Below are positions 57,546-64,000 of a stretch of 64,000 bases of DNA, piece by piece. This stretch comes from Ignavibacteriota bacterium (GTDB taxonomy: Bacteria; Bacteroidota; Ignavibacteria; UBA10030): assembly GCA_963727825.1 (NCBI GenBank), contig CAVSHO010000009.1, positions 320,001-384,000 of the forward strand, read 5' to 3'. Each line of letters opens with the position of its first letter. The first letter of the stretch is position 1. The notes below the pieces were generated by a model that searched no databases, was not told where the DNA came from, and was given only the letters and a program-made list of their open reading frames with translations. The position numbers and the translations under genes are program-made.

Positions 57546-57745
57546 CTAAAATTTTTGATGAAGATATAAAATTATGATGAAAATATTTTGTGGAAGTGTA
57601 TCGCTATTTAATCAAAAACTCAAGCAAAGACCGATAATGATTTTATATAATGGGGAGAGATACTGAAAGTGTGAATTTAGCTGAAAACAAGGGAAAATAT
57701 GCGGTAATTATTTATAAATAAATTAAAATTCTACACAGCGACAGT

Positions 57746-57851
57746 CCTCATGTTGGAAGGGAGTTTCACTCCCGACCTTTGCTTGCTCGGGAGAACATCT
57801 CCCTCGCAACTTTGTTCCAAAACACAAAACGCTGATGATGTTTACACCACC
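57746..57851. repeat. ~106-bp direct repeat on one side of the RAYT gene (REP doublet plus terminator-like hairpin)
   Basis: Nearly identical to 58489-58594. Confidence 0.85.
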
Positions 57852-57877
57852 TGCACAATAATATCATTCTGGGTTTT

Positions 57878-58464
57878 TTAAAAGAATAGTACATCTTTTG
57901 GGGTTTCTTTGTCAAATGTCCATGTAATGACATTATTGGCAATGTAATCGCGGATGTTATTTAATTCTTTTTCATTGCGGATAATTCGGTCATAATATCT
58001 TGGCTGCCAAAGCGGTGTATCCCCCGCACCGGTTAAATGCATTTCATTGATTCGTTTTGTAACAGCAGATTTGAATGACCTCACAATTGTCGACAATGAA
58101 CCAGGTACTGGTTTCCTGAATTGTTCCAGTAGTAGGGACGCGGCATGCCGTGTCCCTACTGATTCATTCAATATTAATATTCCATGAATATGGTTCGGCA
58201 GCCGGAGGCCTTAGAATGTTGCCCCGCATCGTGGGGCACCTTCTTTTCATATTCATCCAATACAACATTCGAAAAATGCTCCGGAATTCCTTTCCAACAT
58301 CTATTAATAATATTTCCCTCCTCATTCAAATTCATCTTACCGTCTACAATTGCACCAAACCTGTGTTCATGATTTTGTGCACAAATTGTTACAAAATATT
58401 CTCCCGGCTGGGAATAATCAAATCCTTTAAGGCGAATCGTTTTTCTTTTATGCTTTTCTATCAT
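57878..58464 (-). mobile_element. REP-associated tyrosine transposase (RAYT / Y1 family), disrupted by a short frameshifting insertion
   Basis: RKTIRLKGFDYSQPGEYFVTIC; PNHIHGIL HUH motif in a shifted frame; SL.TIVRSFKS; WQPRYYDRIIRNE...IRDYI.NN; internal palindrome AGTAGGGAC...GTCCCTACT at 58131-58160. Confidence 0.88.
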
Positions 58465-58488
58465 CAACACGATTTCAAAACACAACCG

Positions 58489-58598
58489 CCTCACGCTGGA
58501 AGGGAGTTTCACTCCCGACCTTTGCTTGCTCGGGAGAACATCTCCCTCGCAACTTTGTTCCAAAACACAAAACGCCGATGATGTTTCCAACACCGGCG
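58489..58598. repeat. ~106-bp direct repeat on the other side of the RAYT gene
   Basis: Nearly identical to 57746-57851; ends in the CGCCGATGATGTTTCCAACACCGGCG hairpin. Confidence 0.85.
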
Positions 58599-58623
58599 GT
58601 TCATGACAGAAAGGGCTTTCTTC

Positions 58624-59991
58624 TTATATTCCAAGCAATCTTCGTATCTGCTTGGTAATTTTTTCGGCGACAGGCGGATCATAATTGCTCAGTACGACTA
58701 TCACATAGTCGGTTCGTTTGTTCCACTCCAGCGCCGCATTGACGCCGGCAGTTCCACCGGCAATTCCCATCCCGTTACGCGCTTCAAATGATTTTGGTGC
58801 AATTGCACTGTTCTGCAGTGCCTTCGTATACAAGAGTAAATCATATGCAGTAGAATATCCTCCACCGGCGGAACTTCCCTTCTGTGGCAGGAGTTCTGTA
58901 TTCCGATGTCGCACGCTATCCTTGCCGTTTCCTGTCGAGTAAGTATATCCGAAAGAACAATTCACCGGAATTGCAGTTCGTTCGTACCAATCAGTATTTG
59001 TCATGCCGGCAGGGATCAATAATTCCTTCTTTATATACTTATAATAATCCATTCCTGTTACGTGTTCGATGATCACCCCAAGAACGATATAACCACCGTT
59101 CGAATAACGGTTTCTTGTCCCGGGTTCAAACTCAAGCGGTTTATCGGCGAACAATGGGAGATAATCCTGTAAACTTCTGATCTTCTCTTTGTGGGCAGCG
59201 ATAAACCGTTCACCAAAGAAATCGCCAATACCGGACCTCATATCGAGCAAGTGTTGTATTGTCACTTTTACCGCAGCATCTTTATTAGGATATTCGGGAA
59301 GAAATTTTTGGATCGGATCGCTAAACTTTAGTTTTCCCTGCTCGGCTAATCTATGAATCGCAAGCGCTGTAAAACTTTTATCCATAGAGCCAATATTGAA
59401 TTTCGTATCGAGGGTATTGAGTATTTTATTTTCCTTATCGGCAAATCCCCATGCATGCTGATAGACTGGCTCGCCGTTTCGTGCGATCAGCACCACACCG
59501 GAAAAATCATCAGATGCCGCAAGCCTGTCGACATACTCTTCGGTCTTTGCTGCCAAATCGATATCGTTCTTTGCCGATTCTACGCTGCTCTCTCCTGTAT
59601 CCTCATCAATTCCGATACCGACGATTCCATGCGGGGCTTCTGGCTCAAACTCAAACGTCATCGCCAGTTTTTTTCCACTTCCATCTACAACAATCGTTTT
59701 CACAAAAGTTTGCTGAACAATGAGTGCTCTTTGGAATGTCAACCCTTTGGTCATAGAATAGAACTGTCTGTAGCGTTCGAGCCGTTGAGCAATAGGGGCT
59801 CCCTTCAAAACATCTGCAGCATAGTGCACAAGGATGAATTCCTTCATCACGGTTGTATCGCCTGAATTGAATGCTTTGAAATATTCCGCTGCCACCTGCC
59901 CTGATGGCGAATCTGACAGCGAAATCTGCTGCTGAGCATGTAGTGGATGAAGAAAGATGAGTAATAAAACCAAAACGGAACCAATGCGCAT
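58624..59991 (-). CDS. Exported serine hydrolase, beta-lactamase/S12 family
   Basis: Signal peptide, FNIGSMDK (SxxK), LLDMRSGI and YSN motifs. Confidence 0.88.
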   Translation of the reverse strand: MRIGSVLVLLLIFLHPLHAQQQISLSDSPSGQVAAEYFKAFNSGDTTVMKEFILVHYAADVLKGAPIAQRLERYRQFYSMTKGLTFQRALIVQQTFVKTIVVDGSGKKLAMTFEFEPEAPHGIVGIGIDEDTGESSVESAKNDIDLAAKTEEYVDRLAASDDFSGVVLIARNGEPVYQHAWGFADKENKILNTLDTKFNIGSMDKSFTALAIHRLAEQGKLKFSDPIQKFLPEYPNKDAAVKVTIQHLLDMRSGIGDFFGERFIAAHKEKIRSLQDYLPLFADKPLEFEPGTRNRYSNGGYIVLGVIIEHVTGMDYYKYIKKELLIPAGMTNTDWYERTAIPVNCSFGYTYSTGNGKDSVRHRNTELLPQKGSSAGGGYSTAYDLLLYTKALQNSAIAPKSFEARNGMGIAGGTAGVNAALEWNKRTDYVIVVLSNYDPPVAEKITKQIRRLLGI

Positions 59992-60120
59992 AGCGTTACT
60001 CCTTGTTTATAGAAATTGTACGTTTGACGTTGGCTGTAAAAGATTGTTCCGTCCGACCATTGTGCCATACTCTCCCGAGAGTCAAACTGATGCTCCGGAG
60101 TGATAAGGTAAGCCACTTTA

Positions 60121-60156
60121 AAACACAAACGCCGATGATGTTTCCACCACCGGCGC
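60121..60156 (-). terminator. Terminator-like hairpin of the same repeat family, downstream of the RT gene
   Basis: AAACACAAACGCCGATGATGTTTCCACCACCGGCG, homologous to 56101-56139 and 58561-58598. Confidence 0.7.
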
Positions 60157-60198
60157 ATTATAGTATTAAAAGAAGAAATGCTCTTTCATTTTGTAAAA

Positions 60199-61041
60199 TT
60201 AATCCGTGTCTTTTACCATTCTCTTTAGATCATCAGCCTGTTGAGGATTTACATATGCTATATAGTCAATTTTCCCTTTGATCGATTTATAGCTTCCTTT
60301 TAAGTTCTTTTTGTAGTCAACAATTTCATGTTTCACGGCATCAACATAACGTTGATTAACCCTTAGTTTAGGATATACTCCAATTCCCATTATCTCTCTT
60401 GGAGATTTGTTATTAAAGACCTCAAATTCATCAAGTAGAAATCCATGCTGTCTAAATATTTTTACAAATAATCTTTGAAACCCTGCTGGGTCAAAATCTG
60501 ACCCAATCACTAAATTGTCTGCATACAGACCGACTCGGAACGCCTCTTTTCCCGCCAATCCGTCGAGTCGAATTATTACAGGATTTAAAGTAAGTGCAGC
60601 AATTTTTGGACTTGTTGGAAATCCTTGAGGAAGTTCAAAATCAAAGGTTATTATTCTTGTAATTAGTTTTGCTGCAGGATTATCAAAATTCAAACCCATG
60701 AGTGTTTTTGTCACCATTGCAGGATAGATTGTAGGATAAAAATCATCGACATCCGCTGCAATCAAGAACTTCGACTTTGAAAATTGAGAAAGCATTTTGA
60801 TATGATTACATCCAGGTTGTAAAAAAAGGAATTTATGCAAAGTGAATTGGCTTAAGATCATCTTATTTATTTTGCGCAACAGATCTTTTAATTCCTCGTT
60901 TGGACATGTGATATCTCGATATCCTCCACTCTTCTTTGCCTTCTTCCGCTTTTTCACCATATAAGACAGATTGCGTGCAATAAAAGAAAGATACTCTTCT
61001 CTTTTATTAAGACGATTCGCAATCTCCTGGATTAAGATCAT
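60199..61041 (-). CDS. Divergent retron-like reverse transcriptase (YADN variant)
   Basis: KKSGGYRDI..P..ELK (RT1), DVDDFYPTI (RT3), LPQGFPTSP (RT4), YADNL (RT5), IMGI at the VTG position. ATG at 61041, or TTG at 61053. Confidence 0.88.
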   Translation of the reverse strand: MILIQEIANRLNKREEYLSFIARNLSYMVKKRKKAKKSGGYRDITCPNEELKDLLRKINKMILSQFTLHKFLFLQPGCNHIKMLSQFSKSKFLIAADVDDFYPTIYPAMVTKTLMGLNFDNPAAKLITRIITFDFELPQGFPTSPKIAALTLNPVIIRLDGLAGKEAFRVGLYADNLVIGSDFDPAGFQRLFVKIFRQHGFLLDEFEVFNNKSPREIMGIGVYPKLRVNQRYVDAVKHEIVDYKKNLKGSYKSIKGKIDYIAYVNPQQADDLKRMVKDTD

Positions 61042-61053
61042 TGAGGTGAACAA

Positions 61054-61296
61054 TTAATAAGATTGAATAAGTAGTGTTCGTTGGGGTTCTAAATAAGTTT
61101 TGTGGGAGAAGCTCACGATGATCGAGATTAACTTAGCAATAAATTCTAAAACTCTTAACAAAAAACCCAAAGGTTTTTCATTCCGATTTAAGAATTTAAC
61201 AAACTTACTTTTCTTTCTCGAATATCTATAAAGCTTCTCCCTTCTCCTGATTCGATTATAACATCGAATTAAGCGAAGTACAAGCTTCCTTTTCAT
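61054..61296 (-). CDS. 80-aa basic protein with a C-terminal hydrophobic/amphipathic helix (putative RT-associated effector)
   Basis: Strong Shine-Dalgarno (AGAAAGGAGG) 8 nt before the ATG; abuts the RT frame. Confidence 0.65.
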   Translation of the reverse strand: MKRKLVLRLIRCYNRIRRREKLYRYSRKKSKFVKFLNRNEKPLGFLLRVLEFIAKLISIIVSFSHKTYLEPQRTLLIQSY

Positions 61297-61581
61297 GTTC
61301 TTTTCCTCCTTTCTAATCGTTTAGTGGAACATATCATTATGAATCGATGATTAGTCGCCACAATGCCTGTACTTTCAAAACTTGAAAAAAAACGCATAGA
61401 GCGTTTCGTTTTATCCATGCATTGCACTGTATAAATTTCTGCAATTGCATAATTGTCTAATAAACAGATATATATTCTCCTATTTATTAGAAATTCTCAG
61501 ATTGGTTTGAACACATATACCCAAATCAACCGAGATACGGCTAGTTTCGCCGGGAAAAGAGGCTAACCTTAGAACATGAAA
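61291..61581 (-). ncRNA. Putative structured RT-associated ncRNA or 5' leader (~290 nt)
   Basis: 11-bp terminal inverted repeat TTTCATGTTCT/AGAACATGAAA plus a 9-bp inner helix enclose about six stem-loops; no ORF. Confidence 0.6.
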
Positions 61582-61689
61582 TTTCAAAGAACATCTAACA
61601 ACTAAAACAAAAAACATTTCTTAAAAAATATTATCAAGAAAAACCGTTCGTGTTTCCATCCCACCAAACAACGTCGGGACGTCAGCATA

Positions 61690-64000
61690 TCAGGAACATC
61701 CTGATGTGCTTCCACACTCCAGACATTTGTAACACGAGCCGCTTCGAATCATAATGCTTCCGCACTCGTGGCATGGAGGTGCATCGGATTGTGTTTCAAA
61801 TACAAATTTCTCGTTCTTCTCCAGCACCGAGGCAGCTTTTGTCGCCGCAGCATTGAGAATCGCACCCGGTTTTTTCGCAGTCTCTGCACTAATTTTTACA
61901 TCGCTCATTGGCGCCTCACCGCGATCCTCTATAAGGAACTTCTTACCAAGCCATCGGAAAATATAATCGCTAACCGACTTTGCAATCGGTATCTCCGGAT
62001 TGTTAGTAAAACCGGATGGTTCATAGCGCGCGTGGCTGAACTTATCCACCAGCACTTTCAGCGGCACACCGTACTGCAGAGCAATCGAAACAGACGTTGC
62101 CAGAGAATCCATTAATCCGGAAATCGTGGAACCCTCTTTAGACATCGTTATGAACAACTCGCCGGGTGATCCGTCTTCAAACATCCCGACGGTGATATAA
62201 CCTTCGTGGCCGGCAATACTGAATTTGTGCGTGATAGATTGGCGTTCATCCGGCAAATGCCGCCGGGCAGGTTTGTTACTTATCTGCAGTTTTTCCTTTT
62301 TCTTGTCGAGTGAAGTACTGAGAGGCTGTGTACGCTTGCATCCGTCGCGGTATACAGCAATAGCTTTTAATCCAAGTCTCCATGCTTCGGTATACGCTTT
62401 CATGATATCTTCTGCATTCACATCGGTCGGCATGTTCACAGTTTTGGAGATCGCACCGGAAAGGAATGGTTGTGATGCCGCCATCATCTTAATATGCCCC
62501 ATATAGGGAATGAAGCGCTTGCCGTTTGCCGGTTTGAATGCGCAGTCAAATACCCGAAGATGTTCTTCCTTCAAATGCGGCGCACCTTCGATTGTGTCGT
62601 TCTTATCGATATAAGAAATAATGTGTTCAATCTGTTCATCGTCGTAGCCCAATTTCGTGAGTGCTTCCGGCACTGTTTGGTTGACGATCTTCATCAATCC
62701 GCCACCGCTCATCTTTTTATACTTCACAAGAGCGATATCAGGTTCAATTCCTGTGGTGTCACAATCCATCATGAACCCGATTGTGCCTGTCGGAGCAAGA
62801 ACTGTCGTTTGCGAATTGCGGATGCCGTGCATTCGTCCAAGTTCAACAACATCTTTCCATACGTTACACTGCGCTTCCCATAGACTTGGTTCTACCGCAT
62901 TCTTATCGATGCGTTCTGCGTGAATGCCATGTTTCGCCATCACGTTCAACATCGGGTCTTTATTTACTGCGAATCCGCTAAACGGTCCTTGTGCTTGAGC
63001 AATCTTAGCAGATTGTTTGTACGCTTCGCCACTCATTAATGATGTGATAGCAGCGGTTAATGTTCTGCCCTCATCGCTATCGTACGCAACACCGCGGGAC
63101 ATCAGCATTGCGCCGAGGTTTGCATACCCGAGTCCGAGCGGGCGATAGTCGTGGCTGTTTTGCGCAATTGCCGGTGTCGGGTAACTCGAGTTATCAACGG
63201 ACATTTCCATTGCGGTAATTGTAACCTGAATAGCTTTTTTAAACGCTTCCACATCGAGATCGCCGTTTGCCCTACGAAACTTCATCAGGTTCAAAGATGC
63301 AAGGTTGCATGCACTGTCATCAAGGAACATGTACTCGCTGCAAGGATTGGATGAATAAATCGGTGCGGTACCGGAACATGTGTGCCAGTTGTTGATCGTT
63401 GTATCAAATTGAATACCCGGGTCGCCACATATCCATGCTGCATCGGCAATTTGTTTCATCAGATCGCGCGCGCGGAATTTTTCTACCGGCATTCCGCCTT
63501 TTACAGCTTTGGTCCAAAATTCCTTATCTTCCAGAACAGCTTTCATGAATTCATCGCTTACACGAATAGAGTGATTGGCGTTTTGATAGAACACAGAATC
63601 ATACGCGCCGCCTGGAACATTGAATCCACCGTCGTAACCCGCATCGATGAGCGCACAAGCTTTTTTCTCTTCTTCCGCTTTACAATTGATGAAACTGATA
63701 ATATCCGGATGGTCGACATTTAATATTACCATCTTTGCAGCGCGGCGTGTCTTGCCACCGGATTTAATCACGCCTGCAAACGCATCGTACCCTTTCATAA
63801 ACGAAACCGGGCCGGATGCAGTACCGCCGCCGGTAATGCGTTCCTTGGAAGAACGAAGTGTCGAAAGATTAGAACCTGTGCCCGAACCGTACTTAAAGAG
63901 CATACCTTCTGTCTTTGCAAGCTCCAGTATGGAGGTCATTGAATCTTTCACTGAATTAATAAAGCAGGCCGAACATTGCGGCATTTTTTCTACACCCACA
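61690..64000 (-). CDS. nrdJ: Class II (adenosylcobalamin-dependent) ribonucleotide reductase, 5' end outside the window
   Basis: PQCSACFI, RRAAKM, SNPCSEY, APTGTI, TSCPD-like domain and C-terminal Zn ribbon. Confidence 0.94.
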   Translation of the reverse strand, partial: VGVEKMPQCSACFINSVKDSMTSILELAKTEGMLFKYGSGTGSNLSTLRSSKERITGGGTASGPVSFMKGYDAFAGVIKSGGKTRRAAKMVILNVDHPDIISFINCKAEEEKKACALIDAGYDGGFNVPGGAYDSVFYQNANHSIRVSDEFMKAVLEDKEFWTKAVKGGMPVEKFRARDLMKQIADAAWICGDPGIQFDTTINNWHTCSGTAPIYSSNPCSEYMFLDDSACNLASLNLMKFRRANGDLDVEAFKKAIQVTITAMEMSVDNSSYPTPAIAQNSHDYRPLGLGYANLGAMLMSRGVAYDSDEGRTLTAAITSLMSGEAYKQSAKIAQAQGPFSGFAVNKDPMLNVMAKHGIHAERIDKNAVEPSLWEAQCNVWKDVVELGRMHGIRNSQTTVLAPTGTIGFMMDCDTTGIEPDIALVKYKKMSGGGLMKIVNQTVPEALTKLGYDDEQIEHIISYIDKNDTIEGAPHLKEEHLRVFDCAFKPANGKRFIPYMGHIKMMAASQPFLSGAISKTVNMPTDVNAEDIMKAYTEAWRLGLKAIAVYRDGCKRTQPLSTSLDKKKEKLQISNKPARRHLPDERQSITHKFSIAGHEGYITVGMFEDGSPGELFITMSKEGSTISGLMDSLATSVSIALQYGVPLKVLVDKFSHARYEPSGFTNNPEIPIAKSVSDYIFRWLGKKFLIEDRGEAPMSDVKISAETAKKPGAILNAAATKAASVLEKNEKFVFETQSDAPPCHECGSIMIRSGSCYKCLECGSTSGCS

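Follow-up and report, generated by a model that had tools for sequence, protein, structure and literature searches.

A rare two-gene retron lineage related to Type VI whose leader RNA probably locks translation of a small protein

We analysed a 64,000-nucleotide (nt) stretch of an Ignavibacteriota genome (contig CAVSHO010000009.1, positions 320,001–384,000; the window), in which a minus-strand operon carries, in order, a structured leader RNA, a gene for a small protein (SP) of 80 amino acids (aa) and a gene for a retron-type reverse transcriptase (RT) of 280 aa. The operon is probably a two-gene retron of a rare Type VI-related lineage, in which the leader RNA locks translation of the SP as a cis-acting RNA antitoxin. 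An initial annotation of this sequence had proposed such a translational lock; the idea is right but not new, because the same logic has already been reported from experiments in two preprints on Type VI retrons (Zhang et al. 2025, on Retron-Vpa2; Garcia-Rodriguez et al. 2026, on Sen3). What appears undescribed is the architecture found here: two genes without a helix-turn-helix (HTH) gene, an RT reading YADN at its active site, an SP family of its own and a long-range lock on the Shine-Dalgarno (SD) sequence and start codon (AUG). A literature search on retron hybrid RNA, Type VI retrons and YADN returned no description of this architecture.

A structured leader ahead of the small protein and the reverse transcriptase

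The leader occupies an intergenic region of 393 nt, which separates the SP start from the end of an upstream open reading frame (ORF) at 61690, presumably class II ribonucleotide reductase-like as read from its translation. The RT ORF begins 12 bases past the SP stop. An in-frame TTG at 61053 is another possible RT start; we placed the start at the ATG at 61041 because five of nine RT homologues are exactly 280 aa long. Coordinates of all features are given in Table 1.

Folding the RNA from 61590 to 61285 gave a closed multi-hairpin domain, which bore out the initial annotation on this point. Its minimum free energy (MFE) was −82.8 kcal/mol, compared with a mean of −60.56 for shuffled sequences (standard deviation 4.01; z = −5.55), and none of 100 shuffles matched it. 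In both the MFE and the centroid structures the whole domain is closed by two helices of the lock, one on the start codon and one on the SD. These are the two long-range complementarities that had first been noticed in the sequence: the former is exact and covers the AUG, and the latter runs over 9 bp with one G-U pair. The six hairpins named at the same time all lie in the MFE structure to within 1–2 nt, together with one extra hairpin. A repeat search recovered UUUCAUGUUCU/AGAACAUGAAA as an inverted repeat of 11 nt at 100% identity, with 269 nt between the arms. Logan contigs of four DNA runs yielded only a few near-identical variants of the locus, with none from run X3; in a near-identical contig from DNA run X4, a U>C change at 61558 turns the G-U pair of the anti-SD helix into G-C.

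Table 1. Features of the retron locus in the window.
Feature	Position	Strand	Basis or remark
P0 5' arm UUAGAUGUU, candidate true a1	61590–61598	−	10 pairs; one A-A mismatch in the window
GUUCUUU, sole invariant 5' block in seven leaders	61586–61592	−	alignment A2, columns G13–T19
Anti-start-codon arm UUUCAUGUUCU	61571–61581	−	exact reverse complement of 61291–61301
Anti-SD CCUCUUUUC	61554–61562	−	pairs with SD, 9 bp including one G-U
Internal hairpins, as a set	61325–61552	−	all in the minimum-energy fold
H1	61552–61538	−	predicted fold
H2	61535–61495	−	predicted fold
H3	61491–61456	−	predicted fold
H4	61451–61417	−	predicted fold
H5, followed by U-run	61408–61390	−	predicted fold
Small hairpin (the extra one)	~61389–61373	−	predicted fold
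H6	61362–61325	−	predicted fold
P0 3' arm AACGAUUAG	61313–61321	−	abuts SD, shares its first G
SD GAAAGGAGG of SP	61305–61313	−	probability 0.994 of pairing with 5' 75 nt
3' arm AGAACAUGAAA with AUG at 61296–61294	61291–61301	−	AUG paired with probability 0.999
SP (small ORF), 80 aa	61054–61296	−	ORF with strong SD GAAAGGAGG
Retron-type RT, 280 aa from ATG at 61041	60199–61041	−	family and profile matches; motif C YADN
Promoter-like site 5' of the structured leader	61630–61658	−	TGGAAA, 17 nt, GATAAT; only 9 of 12 consensus matches
Terminator-like hairpin 3' of the RT gene	60129–60156	−	12 pairs, 7 of them G-C; T-rich tail

Conservation of the lock and a competing closure

The RT has only nine relatives among 5.8 billion clustered proteins (42–91% identity). 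Scans of genome, metagenome and viral contigs gave at least 86 loci; the RT relatives at 77–91% identity were not among these DNA loci. At least eight distinct loci make up the RT clade: the window, L026 (71% RT identity to the window), L027 (61%) and, at 37–41%, L028, L029, L030 (= L031), L032 (= L001, a Wenzhouxiangella metagenome-assembled genome) and L033. Support for the clade was 100/100 in a careful tree of 43 rows, which omits five long-branch rows, and 97 by the Shimodaira-Hasegawa-like approximate likelihood ratio test (SH-aLRT) in a quick tree of 48 rows.

Seven of these loci, from at least four lineages, carry homologous leaders (the window, L026, L027, L028, L029, L032 and L033), and the multi-hairpin RNA is conserved among them. 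Their alignment (A2) holds at both ends and is variable in the middle; the leaders of the window and L026 are 88% identical. Searched with nhmmer against the 87 loci plus the window, the leader profile matched only the seven distinct loci from which it was built, and it found nothing in L030, L031, L035 or L069 at E up to 1. After the invariant GUUCUUU block, the next base is G in five leaders and C in two. The other conserved elements are the anti-SD, C(C/U)UC(C/U)UUUC, with hairpin H1 after it, a UUGGGnAUnU block, a hairpin followed by UU(U)CAAGU, and (G)AACGAU(C/U)AG adjoining the SD. Two pairs of H1 are compensated across loci, and H3 and H4 still form hairpins in L027, where their sequence differs, which makes these two candidate msd template stems. 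RNAalifold, run on the MAFFT alignment, returned only fragments because the variable middle was misaligned, plus a third pairing, between the a2-like segment and the 5' arm of H6.

All seven loci keep the SD and AUG buried, by means of lineage-specific compensating sequences, with the AUG part weak in L032. When each leader was folded on its own, 62 of 63 SD nucleotides and 20 of 21 AUG nucleotides paired with the 5' segment in the MFE structures. The ensemble probability of pairing with the first 75 nt was 0.95–1.0 for the SD and 0.63–1.0 for the AUG across the seven. The anti-AUG spacer is unalignable between lineages, yet it fits its own start region: cognate duplexes reached −13.8 kcal/mol in the window, −10.8 in L026, −13.0 in L027, −11.6 in L028, −18.5 in L029 and −11.9 in L033, and were equalled by 1, 9, 8, 10, 0 and 3 of 1,000 shuffled spacers, respectively. 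Within lineages (three compared) these duplexes ranged from −10.8 to −18.5 kcal/mol, compared with −1.5 to −9.4 across lineages.

Such pairing could in principle be a chance complementarity without function in an AT-rich intergenic region, given that dinucleotide shuffling of the 306-nt stretch produced a perfect inverted repeat of at least 11 bp in 11 of 500 trials and that the repeat search listed 12 inverted pairs within 701 nt. The 11-bp repeat alone is indeed weak evidence, being modestly unusual; its placement on the SD and AUG and its conservation carry the case. We regard chance as very improbable in view of the folding z-score, the retention of the lock in at least four lineages down to 37% RT identity, and the 88% identity of the window and L026 leaders at a point where the two RTs have diverged to 71% in protein, with a synonymous divergence (dS) of 1.57.

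Beside the RT, the leader folds into a structured noncoding RNA (ncRNA) with terminal inverted repeats, for which there are two candidate closures. The initial annotation had taken the 11-bp repeat for the retron a1/a2 repeat, and this repeat does close the leader; it has a conserved rival in a second closure, P0, whose 5' arm overlaps the invariant GUUCUUU block. P0 pairs GAUCGUUC(U) with (A)GAACGAUC over 7–9 bp in L028, L029, L032 and L033, and UAAUUGUU with AACGAUUA in L026; the window and L027 have a weaker form. On A2, 81.4% of P0 cells were paired, and one pair showed AU/GC compensation (slid controls gave 24–52% for the whole tested structure, P0 plus H1). Directly upstream of the P0 5' arm, L028, L029, L032 and L033 have a 6–7 bp stem-loop with an AAG-containing loop, and a promoter-like element, TTGnTn-17-TA(T/C)ATT, lies about 7 nt ahead of the 5' stem-loop in the four distant loci. 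The P0 5' arm thereby takes the place of the 5' inverted repeat of Sen3, which likewise follows a 5' stem-loop. By sequence, P0 seems at least as good an a1/a2 candidate as the 11-bp repeat. Less was left of a further retron-like sign, the resemblance of AAGGUUAGC to a branching-G context: it follows the 5' arm as had been said but is not conserved, reading GAUGUUUGC in L026 and L027 and being wholly different in the four distant loci. The X4 contig has a G>U change at 61568, within this context.

Since the anti-AUG and anti-SD arms are downstream of the P0 5' arm and the SD adjoins the P0 3' arm, P0 and the lock cannot nest; they are either alternatives or a strained pseudoknot. In all seven leaders the lock is the MFE structure, and imposing P0 raises the energy by 4.8–17.6 kcal/mol above it.

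Closure by a1/a2 repeats is general among retron ncRNAs. With a retron-type RT beside it and variable hairpins H3 and H4 that look like msd stems, the leader might thus be an ordinary msr-msd, in which the inverted repeat only primes reverse transcription and coincides with the SP start, without a regulatory role, because the operon is compact. This is distinctly unlikely: the pairing tracks the SD and AUG in all seven loci despite an anti-AUG sequence that changes with lineage, P0 is available as a separate conserved closure for priming, and Type VI retrons use such sequestration functionally.

Within the leader, H5 (AAACGC...GCGUUU) is followed by eight U and then by the conserved CAAGU (61383–61408, minus strand), and the hairpin with its U-run looks like a weak intrinsic terminator. 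Most of the seven loci keep the hairpin and CAAGU (UAAGU in L027); the U-run is not kept. A search by eye for a conserved 7-nt direct repeat as in Vpa2 found only a loose similarity, between the 5' sequence CGUUCUUU and the 3' arm of H5 plus the U-run. An Rfam scan of 60000–62000 at E up to 10 gave four weak matches, all far under their gathering scores.

The two proteins and their genomic surroundings

The RT matched Pfam RVT_1 (4.2e-12) and 39 PADLOC retron RT models, led by RT_II-A (118 bits, 1.1e-34) and RT_VI (117 bits, 2.3e-34); the PADLOC retron models assign it to no type. NCBIfam retron_St85_RT matched at 1e-29 with 103.8 bits, under its 235-bit cut-off. All 12 PDB matches of the RT profile were retron RTs, the best being Ec86 (3.5e-20). 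Together with the PADLOC matches, this confirms the initial annotation of the enzyme as retron-type. What we take to be the retron motifs NAxxH and VTG align in this RT to different residues.

The catalytic triad with which RTs bind metal includes the second aspartate of YADD. In seven of the eight clade RTs (the window, L001 = L032, and L026–L030) motif C is YADN and aligns with YADD of Ec86, so that these seven lack the catalytic YADD of retron RTs; L033 keeps it. Outside the clade, L069 reads YGDN and the other 39 RTs in alignment A3 read xxDD. As L033 groups with the subclade of the window in the tree, the YADN change arose twice or reverted. A literature search found nothing on YADN or on substitution of the second aspartate in retrons.

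The SP is encoded in seven of the eight clade loci, as homologues of 80–110 aa abutting or overlapping the RT start, and is retained down to 37% RT identity. The ratio of nonsynonymous to synonymous substitution (dN/dS) was 0.21 between the window and L026, marking the SP as a coding gene under purifying selection. In the same comparison its dS was 0.42, against the far higher value for the RT, which, together with the leader identity, points to a constraint at the RNA level that extends into the SP coding sequence. An AlphaFold model from a seven-row alignment was all-helical (predicted local distance difference test score 79.5, predicted template modelling score 0.34), with helices at residues 2–27, 31–38 and 40–79. 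The sequence has a basic N-terminal half, a hydrophobic or amphipathic helix LGFLLRVLEFIAKLISIIVSF (hydrophobic at about 43–63) and then a conserved S-x-K-T. No match to the SP was found in Pfam, PADLOC or NCBIfam, a protein atlas search gave no usable match, and none of its 13 relatives in the protein collection has a functional name. It is the presumed toxic effector.

A leader that works without the RT has also to be weighed. Type I toxin mRNAs such as hok/sok and tisB/istR are kept silent by long-range pairing that hides the SD, and as in those systems we find a small hydrophobic or amphipathic protein whose mRNA would be held inert by long-range SD pairing. The RNA could accordingly be a cis-regulatory leader of the hok/tisB type, or an attenuator, that is no RT template and stands beside an RT that may not polymerise; YADN in place of YADD, the hairpin and U-run inside the leader (61408–61390) and the lack of a match to a retron or any other family in Rfam would all fit. 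We consider this unlikely. The RNA and the SP were found only beside this RT clade (seven loci among the 87 loci plus the window), and L033 keeps YADD with the same RNA. Type I systems lack an RT and rely on mRNA processing and on an antisense RNA as antitoxin, whereas here the locked mRNA is fused to retron RNA and always lies beside a retron RT. The architecture is also that of Sen3 (5' stem-loop, 5' inverted repeat, variable long stem and ribosome-binding site (RBS) in the basal stem).

None of 60 related genomes searched had the RT gene, the pattern to be expected if it is a defence gene that moves. Among viral contigs there was no clade member; their single match was 23% identical. Flanking genes differ between lineages, with no third gene common to them. 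L030 (= L031; 3091–4882) has no SP and no such leader; instead, a 305-aa protein overlaps the start of its YADN RT. This protein, which has a signal resembling that of lipoproteins and matches Exo_endo_phos weakly (24.0 bits, cut-off 24.5), may be an effector swap. Two large ORFs lie upstream in L032 (= L001; 57–3079), one with an NPPY-type motif that we take to be typical of DNA methyltransferases, so the surroundings may be a defence-island context.

Plus-strand promoter-like sites were at chance level (8, compared with 6.2 expected), in an analysis that included no search aimed at an antisense transcript. At 57723–58682 of the window, on the minus strand, two neighbouring ORF sets encode near-identical peptides (...FVFWNKVAREMFSRASKGRE at 57766–57942 and 58509–58682) and adjoin ORFs of 97 and 139 aa that resemble an IS200/RAYT-type transposase. 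Judged from translations only, this is probably a mobile element in repeated form, lying about 2 kb downstream from the retron.

Relation to Type VI retrons and a proposed mechanism

Type VI SPs are helical proteins of 75–79 aa with a hydrophobic C-terminal helix (Mestre 2020; Sen3, bioRxiv 10.64898/2026.04.27.721009). In Retron-Vpa2 the SP is toxic and translationally repressed in the hybrid RNA, and its translation depends on the multicopy single-stranded DNA (msDNA); sequestration of its RBS and start codon is a predicted fold (Zhang et al., bioRxiv 10.1101/2025.10.22.683967). An HTH gene is present in about 78% of Type VI entries; the Sen3 preprint notes the other 22% or so without characterising them (bioRxiv 10.64898/2026.04.27.721009).

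By sequence, the clade appears related to Type VI. For L001 (158.5 bits) and L033 (130.3 bits) the highest-scoring model is RT_VI, which ties with III-A and II-A in the others. RT_VI is also the best RT model for L035 (157 bits), on the sister branch, where a Cro/C1 HTH (PADLOC HTH_VI, 2.5e-20, and Pfam HTH_3) lies directly upstream of, or overlaps, the RT. The sister grouping of the clade and L035 has moderate support (ultrafast bootstrap 79, SH-aLRT 92), in a tree without named Type IV, V or VI RTs. Positions 1–300 of L035 contain a putative SP start (SD at 261, AUG at 276). In the MFE structure its AUG and some of its SD are paired, over a long range, with a segment lying about 170 nt upstream; the SD region, GAAAGGAGGAUAUAG, is identical to that of L033 over 15 nt. 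Among the features that define Type VI, a small helical accessory protein (80–110 aa) between the ncRNA and the downstream genes was found at our loci, as was, by fold prediction and comparison, a sequestered SP RBS and start codon in a hybrid RNA.

As in Vpa2, one transcript comprises a structured retron RNA and the ORF of a small protein (toxic in Vpa2, presumed so here), the SP's RBS and its initiation codon are base-paired, the SP itself is a small helical protein whose C-terminal helix is hydrophobic (and, in Vpa2, essential), and the RT is about 280 aa long. Unlike in Vpa2, where an HTH protein encoded between SP and RT represses reverse transcription and its mutation is toxic, no such gene is present. 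The Vpa2 RBS and AUG lie in local stem-loops, whereas here they pair over a long range with the leader 5' end; the a1/a2-like repeat of Vpa2 spans the SP coding region; its RT reads YADD rather than YADN; and the two SPs share no sequence similarity.

Sen3 (cl2075 lineage; Garcia-Rodriguez et al.) likewise has an ncRNA that carries terminal inverted repeats and lies within some 280 nt of where the SP starts, an SP RBS predicted in the basal stem, a long variable internal stem and predicted alternative conformations. Its 5' stem-loop ahead of the 5' inverted repeat has a counterpart in four of our seven loci (L028, L029, L032 and L033), and its helical SP of 79 aa with a hydrophobic core at about 47–69 resembles ours of 80 aa. 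By contrast, the Sen3 SP is made constitutively and neutralised post-translationally by the HTH protein. With no HTH gene here, control of the SP must lie elsewhere, presumably in the RNA. Sen3 also differs in RT clade, SP family and hosts, which are Proteobacteria, compared with uncultured peat and sediment bacteria here. Ec86 (type II-A) shares a homologous RT and an upstream structured RNA closed by inverted repeats, but its effector gene lies outside the ncRNA, its msDNA is the antitoxin and its RT reads YADD.

Several observations weigh against a Type VI-like lock. A Type VI HTH gene (Cro/C1 type, cluster 2_1, upstream of or overlapping the RT) was looked for and found at no clade locus, and in seven loci there is no ORF between SP and RT. 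The HTH_VI model did match six generic HTH ORFs in the genome, the nearest about 100 kb away on the contig of the window; it also matched in 13 of 14 control genomes and is therefore unspecific. The clade RTs score 116–158 bits on RT_VI, level with III-A and II-A, and the SP profile showed no similarity to the upstream ORF of L035 by hhalign, nor to any family. The anti-AUG helix of L032 is no better than chance (−8.6 kcal/mol, equalled by 156 of 1,000 shuffles). The SD helix shows one-sided changes only (U-G to C-G and the like), because the SD, like the AUG, is constrained and cannot vary freely. The independent lineages number four among the matches listed. The conserved P0 competes with the lock, which may not be the only functional fold. 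With YADN, DNA synthesis by the RT may be weak or absent. RT starts (61041–61056 in the window, and in L026–L033) have no evident SD and abut or overlap the 3' end of the SP gene, which makes translation of the RT while the SP is locked a difficulty for the lock. The hybrid RNA is itself a prediction here, from sequence and modelled folds, and the msDNA is hypothetical.

What is directly supported is the pairing and its conservation, the retron type of the RT, the conservation of the SP as a coding gene and the lack of an HTH gene. From these we infer that the SP is toxic and that the RNA serves the RT as template, as well as how the lock is triggered and released, and with this a mechanism for the lock favoured above. 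One transcript would comprise a structured non-coding domain, serving as retron template RNA, followed by the SP and RT. In its most stable fold the 5' segment of the leader would pair with the SP's SD and initiation codon, so that the SP would be transcribed and not translated. By analogy with Vpa2, an event tied to reverse transcription or to the RT–RNA complex during phage infection would open the lock, and toxin would be made; the event could be the synthesis of msDNA, a shift into the P0 fold or detachment of the RT. Canonical Type VI retrons have an HTH protein as antitoxin or RT repressor; with none here, the RNA lock would be the only safeguard.

A bolder variant, possible but doubtful, makes the RNA of this HTH-less lineage both sole antitoxin and two-state switch. 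P0 would be the true a1/a2 closure, and since P0 and the lock use adjacent, topologically conflicting strands, the priming fold would free the SD and couple RT engagement to toxin translation. The YADN RT would then have altered or minimal polymerisation and perhaps act mainly as a sensor that remodels the RNA.

The favoured reading, a cis-acting RNA lock on the SP, extends the hybrid RNA logic of Type VI to a divergent and very rare lineage of uncultured peat and sediment bacteria that lost, or never had, the HTH protein (antitoxin in Sen3, RT repressor in Vpa2). If functional, the locus would show that an RNA lock alone can keep a retron toxin silent, and it would offer a minimal two-gene model for how reverse transcription opens such a lock, in which the conserved YADN active site and the competition between the two closures give experiments something definite to test.

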